This document shows, in pieces, positions 5,103-59,380 of a stretch of 64,000 bases of DNA. Within the stretch, counting starts at the first letter, position 1. The number at the start of each line of letters is the position of its first letter. Where the stretch lies: positions 832,001 to 896,000 of the forward strand of contig CBDBCR010000001.1 of NCBI GenBank assembly GCA_965203465.1, given 5' to 3'. The notes below the pieces were generated by a model. That model was not told where the DNA came from and did no database searches. It saw only the letters and a program-made list of their open reading frames with translations. The stretch is from Nitrosopumilaceae archaeon (GTDB lineage Archaea > Thermoproteota > Nitrososphaeria > Nitrososphaerales > Nitrosopumilaceae). Made by a program: the position numbers and the translations under genes.

Positions 5103-6134
5103 CTACGGGTTTATGACCGCGCGCCCCACTATCCTGCCCGCCTTCAGGTCCGAAAGCGCCTCGTTGGCGCCGTCCAGCCCGTACTTTTTGGAGACGACCG
5201 GCTTTACCGTCCCCTTTCTTGCAAGCTCGACCAGCTCTTCCAGCGCGCCGAACGTCCCAGTGTAGGCGCCCTCTATCGTCATGGCCTTGAGCGGGACCGT
5301 CACGAGGGGCAGGTCCACCGAGCCTCCGAACAGGCCCACCATGACGAGGCGGCCGCGCTTGCGCAGGACCGAAAGAGCCAGCTTTGCTGTGGCCGGCGCG
5401 TTGACAAAGTCGACGACCGCGTCGGCCGCGCCTATCTGGCCGGCGGCGTCCTGCGATTTCGAGTTGACGGCGCGGTCGGCGCCCATCTTCTTGGCCGCGT
5501 CGAGTTTGGCGTCGTCGATGTCGACGCAGACCAGCTCCGCGCCGGTCACGGCGCGGGCCAGCTGCACGCCCATGAGGCCCAGCCCGCCGGCGCCGATTAC
5601 TGCGAGCGAGCGCGGCGAGCCCGACGCGGCCTTTTTGACGGCAGTGTAGGCGGTCAGGCCGGAGCATGCCAGCGAGGCGGCCCCGTCGCTCTCGAGGCCC
5701 GAGGCGCTCGCCAAATACCTGTAGCTTGGCACCAGCACGTACTCTGCGTACCCGCCGTCCCTGAATATGCCGAGCGAGCCGGGCGTGTCGCACAGGTTCT
5801 CCGAGCCGCCCGAGCAGGCCGGGCAGCTGCCGCAGCCGCCCCACGGGTACACCAGCACCTCGTCTCCCTCGGCGAAGCCGACCGCGCCGGGGCCGGCCTC
5901 GTGGACGGTGCCGACTATCTCGTGGCCCGGCGTGACGGGGTACTTTACGCCGCGGTCGGTCACCTTCATGAAGCCGTCGCCCAGATCGTAGCCGCCCTCC
6001 CACAGGTGCAGGTCGCTGTGGCAGACGCCGGCCGAGCGCACGCGCACGAGCACCTGCTCGCCGGTCGGGCGGGGCGCGTCGGTCTCGGACACCTCGAGCG
6101 GCGCGTTGGGCGCGGTGATCCTGGCGGAGCGCAT
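5103..6134 (-). CDS. zinc-dependent alcohol dehydrogenase
   Basis: GVCHSD, GHE, CGSCPAC..C, GAGGLG. Confidence 0.95.
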   Translation of the reverse strand: MRSARITAPNAPLEVSETDAPRPTGEQVLVRVRSAGVCHSDLHLWEGGYDLGDGFMKVTDRGVKYPVTPGHEIVGTVHEAGPGAVGFAEGDEVLVYPWGGCGSCPACSGGSENLCDTPGSLGIFRDGGYAEYVLVPSYRYLASASGLESDGAASLACSGLTAYTAVKKAASGSPRSLAVIGAGGLGLMGVQLARAVTGAELVCVDIDDAKLDAAKKMGADRAVNSKSQDAAGQIGAADAVVDFVNAPATAKLALSVLRKRGRLVMVGLFGGSVDLPLVTVPLKAMTIEGAYTGTFGALEELVELARKGTVKPVVSKKYGLDGANEALSDLKAGRIVGRAVINP

Positions 6135-6222
6135 GGGCCAAGACCCCGGCGGTTATCATATAAGTCGAACGGCGCGTTTTCCGGCACAGGATTTAATTAT
6201 GGTCTTGCCGGGGCGCGCGCGC

Positions 6223-6876
6223 ATGTATAGCGGCGAGCTCGAAGTCCAGGCCAAGCGAAAGGCCGTCGCGGTGCTGCAGGACGAGATAAACCGCATACTC
6301 AACGCGGCGCGCGAGCTTGCCGCGATACCGGGGCTGGTGATGGCGCGCGACAAGGCGGGCGTAAAGTCGTGCCTCGAGCAGATATCGTCCATCGAGGAGG
6401 AGGTAGAGAGCCTGCGGCGCAAGATAACGCGCGAGGTCGCCGAGGTGGGCGGGCTCATAATGAACCGCGAGAACCTGCTCAACACCGCGTACACGATGGA
6501 CGAGATCGCCGGCCACATAACGGGCATCGCCTTCAAGCTCTCCAACGTAAAGCCGGTCACGATAAAGAACTCAAAGATGGACAAGGACCTGAAGGTGCTC
6601 GTAGACCTGGTGGTGGACGAGGTGTACAAGCTCAACGAGATAATACGCAACCTGACGAGCAACTCTGCGGCGGCCATCGAGCTGGCCCAGGAGACGCAGA
6701 AGATAGAGCGCGAGATAGACACAAAGTACAGGCAGGCCACCATAAAGATACTCGGCGGCATAACCAACACCAAGGAGATGATACTGATGAAGGACATCGT
6801 CGAGGGCATAGAGGAGATGGCAGACAAGTGCCAGCGCGTCTCTGATTCTTTCATAATGCTGGCGCTGAGCCTCTGA
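6223..6876 (+). CDS. DUF47/PhoU-like phosphate transport regulator
   Basis: Helical repeats IEEEVESLRRKI / IEREIDTKYR / IEEMADKC; start placed at ATG 6223. Confidence 0.85.
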   Translation: MYSGELEVQAKRKAVAVLQDEINRILNAARELAAIPGLVMARDKAGVKSCLEQISSIEEEVESLRRKITREVAEVGGLIMNRENLLNTAYTMDEIAGHITGIAFKLSNVKPVTIKNSKMDKDLKVLVDLVVDEVYKLNEIIRNLTSNSAAAIELAQETQKIEREIDTKYRQATIKILGGITNTKEMILMKDIVEGIEEMADKCQRVSDSFIMLALSL

Positions 6877-6877
6877 C

Positions 6878-7411
6878 ATGAAGGCCGAGCTGGTCGAGAA
6901 CCGCCTGGTGGTCTGGAGCAGGCGCGATTCGCGGCGGCTCTTTTCGGACGGCTACTACGGCAAGCCGGTCGGCGTGCCAAAACCCAAGCCGGGCCAGATA
7001 GACGTGCCGCTCATACTGGATCTGATGGAGGGGCTGTACCTGCTGGAAGCGGGCCGCCTCGAGGTGCACCGGGGCGGCAAAAAGGTGGGGCCGGCGGCGA
7101 TGCGGCGCGCCTGCGAGCGCGAGTACCGCGGCTTCGAGGGCAAGTACCGGGTGTACGGCGAGTTCCGCGACAGGGGGTACGTGGTGAGCCCGGGCATAAA
7201 GTTCGGCTGCGACTTTGCCGTCTACGAGCGCGGGCCCGGCATAGACCACGCGCCGTACCTGGTCGAGGTGTACGATCCGCGCCAGACGCTGACTAGCACC
7301 GGCGTGATACTGGCGGGCCGGCTCGCATCCACCGTAAAGAAGCAGTTCATACTGGCCGTGCCGCGCGCCGGGGGCGTCGAGTTCGTGGCGCTAGACTGGT
7401 GGCGGGCCTAG
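6878..7411 (+). CDS. endA: tRNA-intron endonuclease catalytic subunit
   Basis: RGYVVSPGIKFGCDFAVYERGPGIDHAPYLV...RLASTVKK (Y/H/K triad). Confidence 0.95.
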   Translation: MKAELVENRLVVWSRRDSRRLFSDGYYGKPVGVPKPKPGQIDVPLILDLMEGLYLLEAGRLEVHRGGKKVGPAAMRRACEREYRGFEGKYRVYGEFRDRGYVVSPGIKFGCDFAVYERGPGIDHAPYLVEVYDPRQTLTSTGVILAGRLASTVKKQFILAVPRAGGVEFVALDWWRA

Positions 7412-7780
7412 CGACTTTACGTGGCCGGCTATGCGGTCGTAGACCTCGAAGGCCTCCTTGGTTATGCCCAGTTCGCGGCGGTTCTGCCACTTGCCGTGTA
7501 TGCGCACCGCGTTGCCCGTCGGCTCGACGGTTATCGAGGCGTGCGGCAGGGGCAGCTTTTCTATCATGGACGTCAGCTGGGAGTCGGCCGAGAGGGCCTC
7601 GGCGAGCCTGCCGCCCTCCCATTGCGCGGAGACTATCCTTTTGGCGCCGAAGCGGCCGCTGGTGCGCAGCCGCACGCGCGCGTAGTGGCCGTGGTCCGAT
7701 TCCGTCCTGACGATGTAGTGGGCCTGGTACCTGTCCAGCGCGCCCCAGTGCGACGGCTCCTGCTCCTGCACGCCCATCAC
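7391..7780 (-). CDS. hypothetical protein
   Basis: Protein-like ORF coupled to the upstream ORF. Confidence 0.7.
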   Translation of the reverse strand: MMGVQEQEPSHWGALDRYQAHYIVRTESDHGHYARVRLRTSGRFGAKRIVSAQWEGGRLAEALSADSQLTSMIEKLPLPHASITVEPTGNAVRIHGKWQNRRELGITKEAFEVYDRIAGHVKSLGPPPV

Positions 7781-8013
7781 CCCTTTTGCACGATGTGCAC
7801 CAAGTCTATGTTGGCGCCCGAGACCTCCACGCAGCCCCTGTTGGTTATCATGCGAGGCGAGCTGGCCTGGTACCTGCTGTAGTAGTCGGTCTTTTCCACC
7901 TCGTCGGAGCCGGCCTCCTTGGCCGAGGCCCGCACGCCTATGGTGCCGAGCATCTCTGCGTATTCCTCTTGGAGCGTGAGGGGCTCGAATGTGTCGGGCT
8001 CGTCGTCGTGCAC
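7777..8013 (-). CDS. hypothetical protein
   Basis: Protein-like C-terminal part of track ORF 7777..8175; start placed at GTG 8013 downstream of an AT-rich box. Confidence 0.65.
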   Translation of the reverse strand: MHDDEPDTFEPLTLQEEYAEMLGTIGVRASAKEAGSDEVEKTDYYSRYQASSPRMITNRGCVEVSGANIDLVHIVQKG

Positions 8014-8083
8014 GGGCGGCGGCCCCGGCCCCCTCAAATAAACCTCCCGCGGGAATTTATACGGCCGCCGCCGGGGGGAGGAC

Positions 8084-8206
8084 GTGTGGTCGCGATCCAA
8101 CCTGCTGGTGATACTGCCCCTGGCAGCCTTCGGGGCCCTGATATTCGGCTTCGGCATATACAACACGGTGTGCAAGAACTCGAGCCTCTGGGTGCTGGAC
8201 TGCTAG
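8084..8206 (+). CDS. small single-pass membrane protein (40 aa)
   Basis: MWSRSNLLVILPLAAFGALIFGFGIYNTVCKNSSLWVLDC; TATA-like AATTTATA about 25 nt upstream. Confidence 0.6.
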   Translation: MWSRSNLLVILPLAAFGALIFGFGIYNTVCKNSSLWVLDC

Positions 8207-8235
8207 TTTAATAGCGGCCGGCGCGCCTGCCCGCC

Positions 8236-8562
8236 GTGGCCCGGATATCGCTGGAGTCGCGCGAGGCGCCCACCGACGAGCAGCTGCGCGAGCTGCGCGG
8301 GTACTTTGCCGGCATGCCGATGTCGGAGGTGCTCTCGGGCCTGCGGTTCGCCGAGCGGCGCTGGGCCGCCAAGGATTCGGGGACGCTGCGGGTGGGCCGC
8401 AAGAGCATCATACGCGGCGAGGTGCATTCGGTCACGCGCGAGCAGGCGCGCTGGCGGCTGGACAACTGGCCGCTGATGCGGGCCGAGTACAGGCGCCGGG
8501 GGTACAGCTACCCGACCATATCCAGGATAAAGCGGGCGCTGGCCGAGCTGCGCGACGGGTGA
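8236..8562 (+). CDS. conserved hypothetical protein
   Basis: Protein-like ORF with TTTAATA box upstream. Confidence 0.75.
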   Translation: MARISLESREAPTDEQLRELRGYFAGMPMSEVLSGLRFAERRWAAKDSGTLRVGRKSIIRGEVHSVTREQARWRLDNWPLMRAEYRRRGYSYPTISRIKRALAELRDG

Positions 8563-43129: not shown

Positions 43130-44629
43130 GTGGCCACCATCCAAGCGAGCAGCCGTGACGCCGGGCCGGGGCACGAGGCGGGTGCGAAAAACGGCGTCTT
43201 TGCGACCGATGAACCGGGCGCACCAGGACGGTCTCCCCGGCGCGGACAGAGCTTGGAAATCGGCATGTCGCCCCAAGAGGTGATTCGGTTCCTGCAATCA
43301 CGCGAATCAACAGACTACGACAAAAACTACTACACGCTCAAGCGCATCGTATCTGAAAACCCCGCGGAATACTCTCGGCTCGCAAGGCGCATGCCAAACA
43401 TGTCTGGCGTGTTCCGCAGCGGGTTGTTTGAGGCGCTGTCCGCATCCGACGCCGCCCTGGACTGGGAGTCGGTTCTGGAGCTTTGCGGTACGATGCTAGA
43501 CGGTGCCGGCCGCACAGAAAGCATCGATTCCCTGCTGGACGACTGCGGGACTCTGTTGCGCAAAAATCTAAAGCCTGGCAGGATCCCGTTCGAATTGCGC
43601 CAGAACGCTTGGAGCGTGCTGGATCGAGCCACAAAACTTGCGCTATCTGATCCCAGTCCGTACGAATCCCGCGGCTCGAATCCCAGCGCATTCATTGCGT
43701 GCATAAACAGCGGAACGGGGGAAACTGCGCTTGCAATAGTCCAATATTCGGTCTGGTGCTACTTTGGCCTAAAAGCCGGCGGCCATGCGCCCGACCGGTT
43801 GCCCGAAGAGGCGAAGACCGCGCTTGAATCGCTGCTGGGCAGCGGCGGATCCCCCCTCGTCCACGCTGCCATGGGGCTCGGCTTTGCCGAGTTGATGTCG
43901 ATCGACCGTGCCTGGGCCTCCAAGCGCGCAGGGACGGTGTTTGTGCGCGGGCATCCGGCGGGGGACGCCGCGTGGGAGTCGTACGTCCGGAATCGCGTGC
44001 ACCCGGCCAGCTTCAAGGCGCTTTTTCAGGAATACGTGTACCGGCTGGGCGCCACTTCCAGGCTCGAGACCCTTGAAATGACCGCGGATCACGTGGTCGT
44101 AGCGCACCTGCACTGCCTTGGAGACACCGACGTGCTGATCGACTCGATCATCGAAAAGAAGGACGGCGCCTTGCTGTCGTATCTGGTGCGGCGCATGGGA
44201 CAGTCGGCAAACCGCTGGCCCGGCAGCGGATCCGGGGCGGACGTGGGCGCGTTTGCCCTGCGCAAAGAGGTGCTGGCAAACCCGAGTGCGGGATGGCTGT
44301 TTCTGAACAAGCGCATGGCAGACAAAGATCGCCTGGATATGCTGGACCGCACACTGGCCGCGACGGGGGGAAAGATCGATCCCGCATCCCTCGTACTCGA
44401 GGATCTCAAACCAATGGCCAGTTCGTACCCGGCCAAGACCGTCGCCTGCGTAGAAAGGATAGCATCCATACGCAAGGCGGACGACGGAATCTTCAGCCTG
44501 CTCGCGGTAATCTACGAGACGCTCCAGGCCGCGCTTGAGACGAAAAACGCCGAGGCGGAACGGGCTGCGAGGCGGGTGGCCAACGCTCTGGGCGCGTACG
44601 GGTTTGAGAGGTTCCGCAGACTCTCCTAA
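43130..44629 (+). CDS. alpha-helical hypothetical protein, possibly the C-terminal remnant of a larger defence protein
   Basis: Long protein-like ORF with lower GC3; start unclear (ATG 43265 possible). Confidence 0.65.
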   Translation: MATIQASSRDAGPGHEAGAKNGVFATDEPGAPGRSPRRGQSLEIGMSPQEVIRFLQSRESTDYDKNYYTLKRIVSENPAEYSRLARRMPNMSGVFRSGLFEALSASDAALDWESVLELCGTMLDGAGRTESIDSLLDDCGTLLRKNLKPGRIPFELRQNAWSVLDRATKLALSDPSPYESRGSNPSAFIACINSGTGETALAIVQYSVWCYFGLKAGGHAPDRLPEEAKTALESLLGSGGSPLVHAAMGLGFAELMSIDRAWASKRAGTVFVRGHPAGDAAWESYVRNRVHPASFKALFQEYVYRLGATSRLETLEMTADHVVVAHLHCLGDTDVLIDSIIEKKDGALLSYLVRRMGQSANRWPGSGSGADVGAFALRKEVLANPSAGWLFLNKRMADKDRLDMLDRTLAATGGKIDPASLVLEDLKPMASSYPAKTVACVERIASIRKADDGIFSLLAVIYETLQAALETKNAEAERAARRVANALGAYGFERFRRLS

Positions 44630-50195: not shown

Positions 50196-50552
50196 ATGTG
50201 GAAGTCTTTGGCGCGCCTTGCATTGGCAGACTTTGATTACGGATCGGTGCTTACGAGTTCGGCGATACTGGCTGGGCTCATCGGAATGGGGTTCGTTGCA
50301 AGCTTTAGGATAATGGACGTAGGCAAGTACATCGAAATGAAGGGACGGGTAAAGGGCCTGTACGCGCTGGGGTTTGTTGCAACGTGCTGTCCGTTCGCGG
50401 TCATTCTGACCGTCGTCTCTGACCATTACTCGCCCCTGGCCCACTTTTGGCTGTTTGTCTCAATGCTGGGCCTCATCGGCGCGTTCATGTACACCATGTG
50501 GTCTATAAGAGACGCCGAGCACAAGCCCGACAGGTGGACAAGCAAAGTCTAG
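50196..50552 (+). CDS. small three-TM membrane protein
   Basis: Three hydrophobic segments, lower GC. Confidence 0.6.
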   Translation: MWKSLARLALADFDYGSVLTSSAILAGLIGMGFVASFRIMDVGKYIEMKGRVKGLYALGFVATCCPFAVILTVVSDHYSPLAHFWLFVSMLGLIGAFMYTMWSIRDAEHKPDRWTSKV

Positions 50553-50827
50553 CAAGAGGGCCGACTGCCAGTATTCAGATTTCCCTTGTCTGCAACCACG
50601 AGGCGCATCTGCTCAAGTTCCTGCTTCACTTCCGTAAAGTTCCTTTCAAGCTCGTAAAACAGATCCACTCCGAACTTGTACTCTTTTGTGTACAGGATCT
50701 CGTCCAAGGCGCGGCGCGCTACGCCGAGGTGTCTTTTCCCGCCGTCGTTCTCCGATCTGACATCCCTCATCCGCCTGATGGTGTGTTCGATTCTTATTTT
50801 GTCGACGACTGGCACGGTCTTGCTCAT
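50549..50827 (-). CDS. hypothetical helical protein, divergent from the Ubl operon
   Basis: 92-aa protein-like ORF; AT-rich promoter at 50851-50864. Confidence 0.6.
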   Translation of the reverse strand: MSKTVPVVDKIRIEHTIRRMRDVRSENDGGKRHLGVARRALDEILYTKEYKFGVDLFYELERNFTEVKQELEQMRLVVADKGNLNTGSRPSC

Positions 50828-50945: not shown

Positions 50946-51242
50946 ATGGAGGACACGGGCGTTGCGGCCGGTTCTGGCACGGCGGAAAGCGGCCCTGCGG
51001 TGCCGTCTGCCGGAATAGACGTCAAGATTGGCGGCAGAAAAATCCACATCGGCGGGGCGGATCTGGGGCGCGTCACCGTCGATCTTTTGCTGAAGGAGGG
51101 CGGCTACGGGGAAGGCGAGATCAACGACTACGATCTTTTTGTGGCCGGCCAAGACGAGCCGCTGGACAGGGACGCCCCGGTCCGGATCACGGAAGGCATA
51201 CAGCTTCGCCCGATAAGGCGATCGAACCCGTACGGCCGATGA
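50946..51242 (+). CDS. ubiquitin-like (beta-grasp) protein
   Basis: Beta-grasp pattern IDVKIGGRKIHI...VTVDLLLKEGG...YDLF...EPLDRDAPVRITEGIQL, tail ending NPYG-R; context with E2 and E1. Confidence 0.75.
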   Translation: MEDTGVAAGSGTAESGPAVPSAGIDVKIGGRKIHIGGADLGRVTVDLLLKEGGYGEGEINDYDLFVAGQDEPLDRDAPVRITEGIQLRPIRRSNPYGR

Positions 51243-51628
51243 ACCCCGACAAACTGCGCTCCGACGCGTCCCGCTTCGCAGGTGCCCGCGGCCTTGCGCT
51301 CGGGTTCGAGGAAAAAGACGGCCTAGTGTATGTGACGTTCGACCGCTACCCGATACCGTCGCCCGCGTACGACCGGGATCGAACGCGGCTGATGATATTC
51401 AACACGGTCGAATACCCAAAGACCGCGTTCGACATGTTCTTCACGGATCCGAGCGTGAGGCTTGCCAGCGGCCGGATGCCGGAAGGCACGTCGATCGCAA
51501 ACCACCTCGGCAGGGAATGGCTGCAGTGGAGCATCCACCCGTACAACGACGGCAGGTGGGATCCAGGCAGGGACGACTTGGACGGATTCATGGACTACGT
51601 AGAGCGCAGGTTCAAGAACGGTGATTGA
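51239..51628 (+). CDS. prokaryotic E2/UBC-fold protein (Prok-E2_E-like)
   Basis: YPIPSPAY, EYPKTAFDMFFTDP, GREWLQWSIH...WDPGRDDL; ATG overlaps the Ubl stop (ATGA). Confidence 0.85.
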   Translation: MNPDKLRSDASRFAGARGLALGFEEKDGLVYVTFDRYPIPSPAYDRDRTRLMIFNTVEYPKTAFDMFFTDPSVRLASGRMPEGTSIANHLGREWLQWSIHPYNDGRWDPGRDDLDGFMDYVERRFKNGD

Positions 51629-52995
51629 CGGTGGAAAGCAAGTCTTCAGATCCGGGCGTGACGGCGGATAGGCGCCAAAAGAGCGCCGGCTCGGGGCCGC
51701 GATGGACTGTGTCGTTCCCGGCGGGACTGTACCGCAGGCTCACGAGTTTTCTAGAGAGCGCCGAACCTCTCGAAAACGGGTGCTATCTGACTGCCGACTG
51801 GCACGCGGCGGGGCGGGTGCGGCGCATGCTTGTCAGGTCGGCAGTACTGCCGAACGAGCGCTCGTGGAACGCCCAAGGGAAGGGGAGCCTGAACCCGTCG
51901 TCGCAGTACCTCAACCGCGCGGTAGGCGAGGCTGAACGGGCAGGATCGTCCCTGCTGTTCGTCCACACCCACCCGTCTTCCGACCACCCTCCCGCCTTCA
52001 GCAGCATAGACGAGGCGACCAACGAAGTGTTTTTCCGAGACATGTCGTCCCTGCTGCACGGCCGCCCGGTAGGCAGCGCGGTCTTGAGCAGGGCCGGCAT
52101 GCACGCGGTCGTGCACCACGAAGGGAGGGCGCATCCGGCGCACCGGATAGAGGCGGTGGGCAGCACGCTGGAGCGCGCCGATCGAGCGCGGGACGGCGCC
52201 GCCAGACATTCGCCCGCGCACGTAAGGCAGGCGGCGATGCTGGGTCCGGTACACGAGCGCATCTGCGGCCTTGACGTGTGCATCGTGGGGGCCGGAGGTG
52301 TAGGATCCTGCGTCGCGGCGCAGGTCGCGAGGCTGGGTGCGGGCCGCATCAGGCTGGTCGATCCAGATGTGCTTGAGGAAAGCAACGTCTCGCGGGTGTA
52401 CGGATCGAGGCCCGAGCAGGTCGGAAGTCACAAGGCGGATGTGGTGGCCGAATACATGCGGTCGTTTTCGAGCTCGGAGGTGCGTGCCGTGCGCGGCGAC
52501 ATCTGCGACGATGAGCACCTTGCATGCGCCCTTGAGGCGGATGTCGTCGTGTGCTGCACGGACAACATGAGGAGCCGGGACAAGCTGAACGAGGCGTCTC
52601 TTCGCTACTACCGGCCCCTGATCGACGTGGGCTGCAACGTGGTGACGGAGAACAGGCTAGAGTCCACCGCGTACGCGCAGTCGGTCACGCCGGAGACTGC
52701 ATGCCTGTGGTGCACGGGGCAGATGGACGGCAAGAGGCTTGGAGACGAGCTTCTTACCGGGGAGCAGAGGCTGGCAAAGGCCAGGCTCGGCTACTACGAG
52801 CCGCACCAGCCTTCGACCGTCGCGCTCACCACTTGGGCCGCCTGCCTGGGCGTGGACAAGCTCTTTTCGCTGCTGGGTCTCTACGGCAGAGGGCGCAGTT
52901 CCGTCTCGTACGTGGACATTACGGGGGAATTCTGCCAGCACCGCACCCCGCCCGTCAAAAAAGGGTGCGTCTGCGCAGAGTTCAGGTTCGACTAG
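51625..52995 (+). CDS. JAB/MPN metallopeptidase fused to ThiF/E1 adenylation domain
   Basis: ENGC...HTHP...FSSID JAMM motif; IVGAGGVGS, DPDVLEESNVSR, CTD, CLWC and C-terminal CVC. Confidence 0.92.
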   Translation: MTVESKSSDPGVTADRRQKSAGSGPRWTVSFPAGLYRRLTSFLESAEPLENGCYLTADWHAAGRVRRMLVRSAVLPNERSWNAQGKGSLNPSSQYLNRAVGEAERAGSSLLFVHTHPSSDHPPAFSSIDEATNEVFFRDMSSLLHGRPVGSAVLSRAGMHAVVHHEGRAHPAHRIEAVGSTLERADRARDGAARHSPAHVRQAAMLGPVHERICGLDVCIVGAGGVGSCVAAQVARLGAGRIRLVDPDVLEESNVSRVYGSRPEQVGSHKADVVAEYMRSFSSSEVRAVRGDICDDEHLACALEADVVVCCTDNMRSRDKLNEASLRYYRPLIDVGCNVVTENRLESTAYAQSVTPETACLWCTGQMDGKRLGDELLTGEQRLAKARLGYYEPHQPSTVALTTWAACLGVDKLFSLLGLYGRGRSSVSYVDITGEFCQHRTPPVKKGCVCAEFRFD

Positions 52996-54394: not shown

Positions 54395-55334
54395 GTGCCG
54401 AAAATAGTGCTCACCGGGGCCACGGGGTTCCTCGGCTCGCACACCATGCCGGTTCTGCGCGCAAGGTACGGCCCCGAGAACGTCCGGGGGGTATCGTCGA
54501 AGGACTACGACCTGACCGCGCCCGGCGATGTGCGCAGGATGTTCGACGAGCTGGAGCCGGACGTGCTGGTGCACTTTGCCGCGTACGTGGGCGGCATTGG
54601 GGCCAACTCGGCCCTTCCGGCGGACTTTTTCTACGTCAACAACCTGATCACGAGCCTGGCCTTCGAGTACGCGGCGCGCAAAAAGATCCGCAAGATGGTA
54701 TACCCGATAGGGGGGTGCTGCTACCCGCACGACGCGCCCTCGCCCATATCCGAATCGCAGATGTGGAACGGCTACCCGCAGGCCGAAAGCGCGGGGTACG
54801 CCATGGCCAAGAAGGTGGGCGTGGTGGCTAGCAGGTCGTACCGCGAGCAGCACGGCCTCGAGTCGGCGATCATCGTGCCCGGCAACATGTACGGCGAGCA
54901 CGACAACTACAGCCTGTCCGATTCCCCACGTCATACCGGCGACGATCCGCAAGATGTACGAGGCAAAGCGCGACGGGCTGCCGCGCGTGTCCATGTGGGG
55001 CTCGGGCGCCGCGCAGAGGGACTTCGTGTACGCCGGCGACGTGGCGGCCACCGTGCCGTTCTTCATCGACTCTTACAGCTCGGACGGGTACGTCAACGTA
55101 TCGACGGGCACCACCACGTCGATACGCGAGCTGGCAGAGACGGTCCGCGAGCTGGTCGGCTACGAGGGGGAGATAGCCTGGGACACCTCGAAGCCGGACG
55201 GGCAGATGGTCAAGATATTCGACACCGCGCGGATGAGGGAGGCGGGCATAGGCTGCCCCACCCCGCTGCGCGAGGGGCTGCGCCGCACCGTCGAGTGGTT
55301 CTCGGCAAACTACGGCTCCGGGGTCCGGCTGTAG
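54395..55334 (+). pseudogene. fcl: GDP-L-fucose synthase, frameshifted at 54924-54927
   Basis: AAYVGGIGAN, YAMAK, PGNMYGEHDNY; removing one C restores DSHVIPA...WGSGAAQRDFVY...WDTSKPDGQ. Confidence 0.85.
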
Positions 55335-55354
55335 GGCCGGCCGAGCCCGCGAAG

Positions 55355-55432
55355 GACGGAACCGGATTCGCCCGTCTTGGCCGATCCGCGGCCGGAAATC
55401 ATCCGCCCGCCGGCGGGACTTTCGGGTCGACT
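55355..55432 (+). repeat. dispersed degenerate repeat, copy A
   Basis: AACCGGATTCGCC..TTGGCCGAT..CGGAAATCATCCGCC..CTTTCGGG, shared with 56990-57122 and 59617-59752. Confidence 0.7.
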
Positions 55433-55476
55433 GTGAACGACGTTTGAGATTTATGCCCCCGTTCGACGGGCAGGCC

Positions 55477-57127: not shown

Positions 57128-58220
57128 TGTGTTGTCCGAAAAAGAGTATCGCCCCTTGAGTAGGCGTGGAGGGGCAGGTAAGAGTGCGGAATGCACGGCG
57201 CGGGCCGCGTGGAGTGGAAATGGAGGTGGGTGGGTCGCCGGGCGCCCGGGCCGACAGGAATACATTGGGGGGCTCCGGGCGGGGGCACTTGAAACTGAGC
57301 CAGTCGCAGGTGCAATGGATAGTCCGCGAAAAGGCGAGGGGGGAAATGACCAACTCGGAGATAGGCAGGCTCGTGGGGGTCTCTGCAGTGTGGGTCAGAA
57401 AGCTGTATGCCCGGTACCGGCACCAAAAGCCCAGCAGGATCTCTTATCCTGCGCCTTTGGGCAGGCCGGCCGGCAGCCTGCCCGGGCGCAGGGAGCACTC
57501 GGCCGTGCTGACTTCGAGGTACGCCGCGGAGAACGGGGCGGTGCGCCTGGTAGATTACATAGAAGAGAGCACCGGATTACATATACCGCACAACGCCATA
57601 CACAGGATCTTGCGGGACGAGGAACTGGCCGATCGGCAGCACAGGAAGAGCGGGCAGCGCAAGTGGGTCAGGTACGAGCGCAAGTACTCCAACTCCATGT
57701 GGCACACCGACTACAAGCAGCTGGACGACGGTATGTGGTTCATCGCGTACCAGGACGACGCGTCGCGCTTCATAGTGGGGTACGGCGTGTTCAAAGAGGC
57801 GACCGGAAAACACGCCGTCGAAGTCCTAAAAGAGGCCATTTCCAGGCACGGAAAGCCGGCTTCGGTGCTCACCGACCACGGATCCCAGTTTTACGCCAAC
57901 GAAAAAGAGTCGGCCGCCCGGGGCGAGGCGATGTTCGAAAAGGAACTGGCCGCGCTCGGCGTGAGGCACATACTCGCTAGGGTCAACCACCCGCAGACCA
58001 ACGGCAAGCTGGAAAGGTTCCACGGCGAGCTGCAGCGCAGGCTGCCCAACTTCATCGGCGCCTCTGCCGACAGGACCACCCGCGCGACGGGGTCCGGGGG
58101 CCACGTGGGCAGCCCGTTCTATTCGGCCGGGCCCACCGACCCGGTGGCCCGGTTCGTGCGCTGGTACAACCACGACCGCGCGCACATGTCGCTTAACAAG
58201 GGCGAGACGCCGGCGCGGGC
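57128..58220 (+). mobile_element. IS481-family insertion sequence, 3'-truncated (transposase from TTG 57289)
   Basis: HTH plus DDE core WHTDYK, DDASRF, TDHGSQF, HPQTNGKLERFH, WYNHDRAH; TGT-starting left end; no matching right end seen. Confidence 0.88.
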
Positions 58221-58310
58221 GTGTTTACGGTCACCGCGTTCTTGTGGAAGAGCATGGACAACCCTGTCCCCCTCTGCGGGCCGGTCTCGAAAGAGGTCAA
58301 CGTGGTATGA
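58221..58310 (+). pseudogene. 3' remnant of a thaumarchaeal surface-protein Ig-like domain
   Basis: VFTVTAFLWKSMDNPVPLCGPVSKEVNVV* directly abuts the truncated transposase in another frame. Confidence 0.55.
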
Positions 58311-58423
58311 CGTGCGAGCGGGCGCGGACTTGGTCGCGTCGGCCGGTGCCGGCTGGGCTGGGATTTTGCACGTGTGCGAAATTCCCGCTCCAACTCTACA
58401 AGCGCCCTACACAATTTACAGCC

Positions 58424-59380
58424 ATGCCCAATACGCCGGACGCGCGCAAGGCGGGCGGATGCAGATCCGCGCAAAACACAGAAACTGCATCCGCGATCCC
58501 TCTACCGTCACATCTTTTTAATGGATTCGAGAGAAAGATGCAGGCCAAGCAACTCGGTTTCATAAGCGACCACATCCGCTCGTACGAACTCTTCGAGAGG
58601 ACGATGGGCTTCCAGTATTTCCTCAACGGCAAGATCATCGACGCGTCGAGCCAGATCCGGGAGCCCAGAGACACCTCTGACCAGGCCATGACCGACGACG
58701 CCATTCTCCAGATCTTGGAGCAGAACCTGCTGTATCTGTTTTCCGCCCTCCGCCCCCTGGAACAAGAGTCCATACACGCCCACCGCGCACTGGTGCGCCC
58801 GGTGCTCGAATCCGTGCCCAAGTGCTTCTTCCTCATGAGGCATCCGGAAAGCACCAGGATGTTTCTGTTGGCAGAGAAACGCGACGCGTGGGAGGCGGTC
58901 GGCAAGCACGAAAGCAGGCCCAAGTCCGAGAAATTTTTAGAATCTGGAGCATCTCGGGAAGTTCCAAGGACGCAAGAAATCACGAACGAGGAATTTGCCG
59001 AGTTCAGGAACCGCAAGAATCGCGAACTGAGATCCAAAATCTACGGCACGAAGACGGTAAAATTGCAGGATCGGCTCTATTCGGTGCTGAGCACCAGCTC
59101 CCACTCGAACATACTCAGACACCACCCTTTGGAAGTCCGCCGGGCGGCCAAAGAGCTGTCCTTTAGGATTCTTGCCGAATTGTCTTTTTTCAACCTGTTC
59201 CTGATGGTCAATTCTCAGCACAGGGCATTGGGAGGCTTGGGCCTCATGGAAACGGCAAAACTGTTCACTTTGGATGCGCAGAAAAGACTGCAACCCCATT
59301 CTGAACTCACGTATTTGTATCCAGACAACAAAGAATACGTGAAGAATCTGATTCTAAAACCCCCGCGGCGGAAAAACTGA
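58424..59380 (+). CDS. DUF5677-like helical protein (paralogue 1)
   Basis: RPVLESVPK and LYSVLSTSSH motifs; colinear with 61894..62880; start uncertain. Confidence 0.7.
   Translation: MPNTPDARKAGGCRSAQNTETASAIPLPSHLFNGFERKMQAKQLGFISDHIRSYELFERTMGFQYFLNGKIIDASSQIREPRDTSDQAMTDDAILQILEQNLLYLFSALRPLEQESIHAHRALVRPVLESVPKCFFLMRHPESTRMFLLAEKRDAWEAVGKHESRPKSEKFLESGASREVPRTQEITNEEFAEFRNRKNRELRSKIYGTKTVKLQDRLYSVLSTSSHSNILRHHPLEVRRAAKELSFRILAELSFFNLFLMVNSQHRALGGLGLMETAKLFTLDAQKRLQPHSELTYLYPDNKEYVKNLILKPPRRKN

Follow-up and report, generated by a model that had tools for sequence, protein, structure and literature searches.

The window considered here is a stretch of 64,000 nucleotides from the genome (2.26 Mb, 96.9% complete) of a Nitrosopumilaceae archaeon, and the subject of this analysis is a compact operon located at positions 50946–52995 of its forward strand, which probably encodes a ubiquitin-like conjugation system of the Bub type (formerly '6E'). 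The operon is composed of three open reading frames (ORFs) with overlapping ends, coding in this order for a small ubiquitin-like protein (Ubl), for a protein with the fold of the ubiquitin-conjugating enzymes (E2) and for a fusion between a JAB peptidase domain and a ThiF-type ubiquitin-activating enzyme (E1); coordinates of genes and residues are collected in Table 1. The stop codon of the Ubl gene and the start codon of the E2 gene, which are read in different frames, overlap in the tetranucleotide ATGA, while the stop region of the E2 gene overlaps the start of the JAB-E1 gene (51625). Since contigs from four public runs, belonging to three studies (one of the runs being possibly the source of this very DNA), bridge the Ubl/E2 junction without any indel, the separation of Ubl from E2 is not an assembly error. 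A scan of the window against Rfam gave no match.

The product of the second gene is 129 residues long and contains no cysteine, as a preliminary description of this DNA had reported, and the segment WLQWSIH, expected there to hold the active site, is found at residues 94–100. The E2 fold, also proposed in that description, is borne out both by the match of residues 17–125 to the Pfam family Prok-E2_E (PF14462; E = 8.4e-18, with a score of 64.8 bits where 25 are required) and by an AlphaFold2 (AF2) model, built on an alignment of 79 relatives, whose predicted local distance difference test (pLDDT) score is 95.8. In a Foldseek search of the PDB this model superposes best on chain 9eae_C, the BubB protein of Citrobacter, with a template modelling (TM) score of 0.77 and a root-mean-square deviation of 2.0 Å over 118 columns (E = 2.8e-7); chains of Ubc13 come next, with TM scores of about 0.47. 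When the two sequences are aligned by phmmer, residues D65, S98 and H100 of the window protein fall on D299, S333 and H335 of BubB.

The conservation of these positions was evaluated in the best 150 of 401 relatives examined, taken from a library of 1.84 billion representatives, and all the column counts given here and in Table 1 refer to these 150 sequences. The column of S98 holds Ser in 130 of them, His in four, Cys in two, Ala and Leu in one each and a gap in 12, that of H100 holds His in 128, and both residues are near-invariant in the 79-sequence alignment. The window protein therefore displays the pattern of the type I Bub systems, namely a Ser where E2s carry their catalytic Cys, a His two residues after it and an Asp upstream, and is devoid of the catalytic Cys, with its HPN motif, by which a canonical UBC-type E2 is recognized. 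By analogy with BubB, Ser98 is presumed to be the nucleophile which accepts the Ubl; the preliminary description had assigned this role to the Ser of WSIH, an assignment now supported by homology, given the position of S98 on BubB S333. The absence of Cys from the whole protein is not a family trait in itself: it is observed in 42 of the 98 standalone E2s (i.e., those shorter than 170 residues; the other 52 of the 150 representatives are longer), and an intact paralogue in the same genome contains two Cys. The non-random part is the residue found at the catalytic position. The two representatives in which Cys replaces the catalytic Ser might belong to the same family of E2s and yet work through thioesters.

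The 456-residue product of the third gene matches the ThiF family with E = 3.8e-30, and its best match among PDB sequences is the Citrobacter BubCD protein (chain 9ea4_A), found at E = 2.3e-24 with the single sequence and at E = 1e-54 with a five-sequence profile, over residues 10–407 of the chain and hence across both domains, as in type I Bub. The match of this protein to the Pfam Prok-JAB family, taken alone, remains under the cut-off (15.8 vs 25 bits). Of the compared sequences, 15 extend over the N-terminal domain: E50, H114, H116 and D129 are kept in all of these, S126 in 14 (it is a Gly in a further paralogous locus of this genome, L007, described below), and the motif aligns to the stretch which holds the Citrobacter site made up of E28, H91, H93 and D104. 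The models listed by NCBIfam for the E1 are of the ThiF/MoeB type only, all far under their cut-offs, and PADLOC (2023), which is without Bub models, returned only Cap2 models, matching the adenylation core.

In agreement with the preliminary description, the E1 reads C360-L-W-C363 followed, 24 residues on, by RLGYYEPHQPST at positions 387–398, and no Cys occurs between 363 and 407. The catalytic residue had been expected just after CLWC, and it is here that Y390, the first Tyr of a GYY triplet, is located. This residue aligns onto Y370 of BubCD in the profile alignment and is invariant in the 17 E1 sequences compared, so that the loop combines, as in type I Bub, the lack of Cys with an invariant Tyr. 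Tyr390 is thus presumed, by analogy, to be the first acyl acceptor; the earlier proposal that a Tyr of GYY acts as a nucleophile holds, on grounds of homology, for the first Tyr and not for the second, which is variable. Two points of method bear on this correspondence: the residue of the chain aligned to Y390 has index 372, and a two-residue tag offset was assumed, because the chain comprises 458 residues and the published numbering ends at 456; moreover, the C-terminal third of the E1 yielded chance matches only when used as a direct query of the PDB, and the alignment of the crossover loop was taken from the profile instead.

The CxxC pair of the E1 is kept in 17 of the 17 sequences and the C-terminal CxC in 13 (one locus, L009, has C-x-H, and three bacterial sequences show gaps), whereas in Citrobacter BubCD the corresponding positions are free of Cys. 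By analogy with MoeB, ThiF and UBA5, the two pairs most likely bind Zn in a structural role, as in MoeB/ThiF, and include no catalytic Cys.

As for the product of the first gene, searches of Pfam, NCBIfam and the PDB sequences gave no match. Its AF2 model (mean pLDDT 81) is composed of an N-terminal tail of about 22 residues predicted with low confidence, followed by one beta-grasp domain, with a pLDDT of about 90 over residues 23–95; the top Foldseek matches of this model are all to ubiquitin, SUMO, ISG15, NEDD8 or a bacterial Ubl, even if they are weak (best E = 9e-3). The protein aligns with ORFs of 78–86 codons which precede the E2 gene in 10 other archaeal loci, and in this alignment Y96 and G97 are near-invariant. 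Over the 11 archaeal loci the Ubl ends exactly at the Gly in seven, carries one extra residue in two (the window and its paralogue), two extra residues in one and three in one; Gly97 is presumed to become the conjugated C-terminus once R98 is removed. A structure prediction for the complex of the E1 domain (residues 185–456), the E2 and the Ubl (residues 20–97) scored 0.49, the same value as a control in which the E1 was replaced, and thus speaks neither for nor against binding.

Table 1. Position in the window of the operon genes, of the residues discussed in the text and of two adjacent genes.
Feature	Position	Strand	Remarks
Ubl (BubA-like)	50946..51242	+	98 aa; ends ...RRSNPYG-R
E2 (BubB-like, Prok-E2_E)	51239..51628	+	129 aa; zero Cys
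E2 Asp65 (GAC)	51431..51433	+	equivalent to BubB D299; column holds Asp in 144/150
E2 Ser98-Ile99-His100 (AGC ATC CAC)	51530..51538	+	equivalents of BubB S333 and H335
JAB-E1 fusion	51625..52995	+	456 aa; JAB ~27–180, ThiF-type adenylation domain ~190–456
JAB active-site residues E50, H114, H116, S126, D129 (E...HxH...SxxD)	51772..52011	+	from conservation in E1 sequences
E1 C360-x-x-C363	52702..52713	+	pairs with C448-x-C450 at 52966–52974
E1 Tyr390 (TAC)	52792..52794	+	crossover loop; equivalent to BubCD Y370
118-aa predicted membrane protein	50196..50552	+	possible accessory gene; co-location only
92-aa predicted helical protein	50549..50827	-	possible accessory gene or regulator; tail-to-tail with the membrane-protein gene

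The closest known system is the type I Bub of Citrobacter sp. RHBSTW-00271 (formerly 6E.1/DUF6527; BubAB, BubCD and BubE; PDB 9ea4, 9ea5, 9ea8, 9eae and 9eav). According to the available part of the preprint devoted to it (Ye, Gong, Chambers & Corbett, bioRxiv 2024, PMC11601596), type I Bub operons are without catalytic cysteines, Tyr370 in BubCD's crossover loop does not vary, and the same holds for Ser333 of BubB, accompanied by His335 and Asp299; the Y370F variant of BubCD abolishes conjugation both in vitro and in E. coli, the S333A/H335A variant of BubB has the same effect, and in the crystal structures Y370 lies beside S333, H335 and D299. A pathway proceeding via Tyr and Ser oxyesters was concluded by those authors, with which the statement in the preliminary description, that bacterial Bub pathways use oxyesters, agrees. 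In the same portion of the text it is stated that a fusion of Ubl and E2 is common to all type I operons and a gene for BubE (DUF6527) to all Bub operons, the role proposed for the Citrobacter JAB domain being the cleavage of the pre-protein and that proposed for BubE being deconjugation; the function guessed at in print for Bub is defence or stress response.

The window operon has in common with the Citrobacter one the JAB-E1 fusion with its Cys-free crossover loop and invariant Tyr, the Prok-E2_E fold with a Ser-x-His and Asp site, a Ubl with a predicted beta-grasp fold and a Gly end presumably destined to conjugation, and the order of the genes. The analysis shows to which families E2 and E1 belong, which residues they carry and how well these are conserved, how the E2 is folded and how the genes are arranged, and on this basis we assign a probability of roughly 0.85 to the reading that the three genes constitute an archaeal Bub-type conjugation operon working via Tyr and Ser oxyesters, the chemistry being transferred by analogy from Citrobacter. 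The cycle would start with the JAB domain trimming Arg98 off the Ubl and exposing Gly97, which the ThiF-type domain would then adenylate with ATP; Tyr390, on the crossover loop, would attack the adenylate to yield a Ubl~Tyr oxyester, after which the loop would swing to the E2 and hand the Ubl to Ser98, presumably activated by His100 and Asp65, giving a Ubl~Ser oxyester from which the E2 would finally pass the Ubl to a lysine of a target.

The likeness to Citrobacter is not complete. The Citrobacter Ubl and E2 are made as one pre-protein, whereas in the window they are encoded by separate genes; the Citrobacter Ubl comprises three beta-grasp domains, that of the window, as modelled, only one; the Citrobacter operon includes BubE, which the window operon lacks; and the host is an archaeon. 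Several observations weigh against the assignment. Neither the Ubl-E2 fusion nor BubE, both of which characterize type I operons, is found here, and parts of the published scheme (the cleavage of the pre-protein and the deconjugation by BubE) are inapplicable as written, because there is no fusion and no BubE. The direct phmmer match between the window E2 and BubB has an E value of 0.5, insignificant alone, and the identity of the two proteins in the structural alignment is just 18%; the alignment of their residues is trusted because the Pfam match and the Foldseek superposition described above back it. In the available part of the Citrobacter preprint, moreover, the oxyester intermediates are deduced from mutants and structures, without chemical trapping (PMC11601596). 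Finally, a variant contig, 98.6% identical, carries 29 substitutions, of which the 27 listed are divided into 13 synonymous and 14 non-synonymous ones, a ratio that indicates only moderate constraint; on the other hand, no indel is present and none of the listed changes hits a catalytic residue, which speaks, like the recurrence of the three genes in 10 other archaeal loci, for an operon that is kept intact. In a low-depth contig (about 4) of run X4, a G to T change at window position 52012 converts codon 130 of the E1 (GAG), just past Asp129 of the JAB site, into a stop codon, which may be an error or may reflect a population with a broken E1.

The relationship to other systems helps to define what is particular to this locus. 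The same E2-like family was described among the '6e' operons (Iyer, Burroughs & Aravind 2006, PMC1779556), and in the available part of that paper the absence of a conserved Cys was already noted, the domain being called for this reason an inactive E2/RWD-like fold; it was also observed there that the domain occurs at times as a standalone gene between a polyUbl gene and a JAB+E1 gene, so that an unfused E2 is not new in itself. The '6e' operons of that account differ from the window operon in that their E2-like domain was read as inactive, in their hosts, listed as proteobacteria, cyanobacteria and actinobacteria only, and in the presence of a fourth, metal-binding protein, today named DUF6527/BubE, which the window operon does not encode. 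Type II Bub (BubA, the E2-E1 fusion BubBD, and BubE; E. coli ZDHYS365) is credited with the same Tyr-then-Ser oxyester chemistry, but it joins E2 and E1 in one protein, has no JAB domain and places Lys and His beside the Ser; the window operon belongs with type I. The Bil system (BilABCD), Cap2/Cap3 of CBASS and the eukaryotic E1-E2 cascades likewise rely on adenylation by a ThiF-type E1, on an E2 fold and on a JAB peptidase; unlike the window operon, they all make use of Cys thioesters. The Ser/Tyr chemistry to which the preliminary description drew attention is therefore already published; what differs is the architecture, i.e., the archaeal host, the unfused genes, the absence of BubE and the retention of the four-Cys motif.

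Archaeal SAMP systems carry out transfer without an E2, and one may ask whether the Cys-free E2-fold protein is a catalytically dead adaptor, of the UEV/RWD kind, for the Ubl or for the E1, the latter transferring the Ubl directly. The 6e operons were at first interpreted in this way, as far as the available part of that paper goes (PMC1779556); we consider it very improbable here, since the Ser-x-His and the Asp are kept in 128–144 of the 150 relatives, which is unexpected for a mere adaptor, and since the S333A/H335A variant was reported to abolish conjugation in Citrobacter (PMC11601596, available part). A Ubl with a Gly end after trimming and an E1 whose CxxC...CxC resembles that of MoeB and ThiF, and for which NCBIfam offers ThiF/MoeB-type models alone, albeit far below their cut-offs, would also be expected of a sulfur-carrier/adenylation pathway of the ThiS/MoaD-ThiF/MoeB kind, in which no protein would be tagged. 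To this possibility we give hardly any credit: the adjacent genes include none for a sulfurtransferase or for cofactor synthesis, the E1 is translationally coupled to an E2-fold protein and comes with a JAB peptidase that shares this coupling, BubCD and BubB are closer relatives than MoeB, and the sporadic distribution reported below (13 of the 180 genomes examined in this family) is unlike that of a housekeeping pathway.

A different kind of explanation is that the window copy no longer functions and is what is left of a mobile system in decay, as might be argued from the state of L007, one of the three paralogous loci of this genome, in which the E2 is split in two frames and the Asp and His are replaced, from the stop at codon 130 of the E1 in the low-depth contig and from the transposase genes found nearby. 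The three ORFs of the window are, however, intact and overlapping, all their catalytic residues are present, and contigs of three runs other than the possible source of this DNA cross the junction without a change of frame, which leaves decay with a very slim chance.

The distribution of the operon was examined in several collections. A search of genome contigs with a profile made from the E1 alignment retrieved 13 loci, while the close E2 alignment, used as a profile against the same kind of contigs, retrieved no loci. The closest relatives of the E1 come from records that bear the names Cenarchaeum (56% identity), Nitrosopumilus, Nitrosotenuis and Thaumarchaeota, from one metagenome-assembled genome of Thermoplasmata and from four bacteria, which agrees with a Nitrosopumilaceae-like host. 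The split, three-gene form is present in 10 other archaeal loci, all with separate Ubl and E2 genes. Among 301 genomes of the class, Prok-E2_E was detected in 14, the present one included (13 of 300 without one genome flagged as unpublished, which is counted among the 14); the other 13 all belong to the same family (13/180), none of the 120 genomes of the other families of the class yielded a match, and none was found in four genomes of the same genus. In viral contigs the E1 alignment matched 36 loci, in each case through the ThiF core only and in none of the 36 accompanied by such an E2 or Ubl; the viral-contig collection searched thus gives no sign of viral carriage. Contigs containing at least half of the sampled words of the stretch came from two sponge-metagenome runs, from one marine-metagenome run (maybe the source of this DNA) and from three runs with coded organism names. 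The patchy distribution, together with the multiplication of the system in an apparently sponge-associated genome, fits a possible function in defence or stress.

With regard to BubE, the genome contains a single match to PF20137 (DUF6527), at C1:730855-731031, where it stands beside a type II E2-E1 fusion, at a distance of about 152 kb from the operon. DUF6527 gave no match in seven other archaeal genomes which carry the split operon, two of these being 95% and 99% complete and the other five being without a completeness figure. The JAB site is intact also in operons where nothing needs to be trimmed from the Ubl, and in genomes that lack BubE, which suggests that in this archaeal lineage the JAB domain may act as a deconjugase. 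Since the data set of the companion Bub preprint was, according to the available part of its text, built from operons containing DUF6527, its very design would have left out forms devoid of BubE; the word 'archaea' appears once in one of the Bub preprints, where it concerns a JAMM structure, and is absent from the other, and a limited keyword search for later Bub literature turned up only the 2024 preprints.

It may tentatively be proposed, at somewhat less than even odds, that ammonia-oxidising archaea (Nitrosopumilaceae) carry a distinct third form of Bub, composed of three genes, independent of BubE, with a Ubl usually ending in Gly (7 of 11 loci) and with JAB as the deconjugating enzyme, since cleaving a pre-protein, as proposed for Citrobacter, could not be its main task there. 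If this were true, the archaeal form would represent a simpler, self-contained cycle of E1, E2 and deubiquitinase-like enzyme based on Ser/Tyr oxyesters, and the first such conjugation system in archaea; the system would moreover have multiplied in its host, where three type I-like loci and one type II locus share 2.26 Mb, and would be coupled to a small membrane protein. As far as the mechanism is concerned, the window copy answers no open question and its value is comparative. A serine/tyrosine Bub cascade would be present in archaea in a minimal form, without BubE and without the Ubl-E2 fusion, which are features by which the preprints, in their available parts, define Bub operons; such a minimal form offers a natural test of the separate roles of JAB and BubE, and its small, soluble-looking proteins (98, 129 and 456 residues) might lend themselves to the trapping of oxyester intermediates.

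The type I-like loci of this genome are the window operon, L006 and L007. L006 is an intact paralogous locus, whose E2 and E1 are 55% and 64% identical, respectively, to those of the window. In L007 (C3:194000-208000; 5903-7867, minus strand) the Ubl ends in VPYG and the JAB-E1 is intact, but the E2 is split over two frames and has lost both the Asp (now Gly) and the His, the site reading FSYS; the locus is probably a pseudogene. The type II locus, L005 (C1:724000-738000; 6727-8558, minus strand), encodes a 400-residue DUF6791+ThiF protein (7088-8290) and a 133-residue DUF6527 protein (6727-7128); a small upstream ORF of about 80 codons ends in ...TRADKS and not in Gly.

The two genes which precede the operon, coding for a predicted membrane protein and for a predicted helical protein (Table 1), recur at L006, the pair occupying 50196-50827 in the window and 7529-8134 in L006, with its orientation to the operon inverted between the two loci. 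Homologues of the membrane protein are encoded next to the paralogous operon of L006 (112 residues, 35% identity) and ahead of the operon in a Cenarchaeum record, L018 (36%); the helical protein is 48% identical to the product of an 85-codon ORF at L006 (7877-8134). No match to Pfam or PADLOC families was obtained for either protein. An ORF at L006 9181-9633, to judge from its translation, presumably encodes an archaeal ribosomal protein of the eS19 type.

The operon lies between two genes for NAD-dependent epimerases, in a stretch of lower G+C content (0.59 vs 0.65–0.71). Related transposase genes with an integrase core (rve) are found a few kb from both intact loci, at window positions 57166-58521 (4 kb downstream of the operon) and at L006 3131-4162. 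About 6 kb upstream of the operon, at 43130-44629, a 499-residue protein without Pfam match weakly resembles the C-terminal part of the PADLOC model for Dsr1 (E = 5e-7), which hints at a defence-related neighbour. At 54395-55447 / 54954-55334 an epimerase-type gene apparently changes frame: the Epimerase match covers residues 4–173 of a 350-codon ORF and an ORF in a second frame continues with what could be the C-terminal part, an arrangement which could be due to a frameshift or to a sequencing error.

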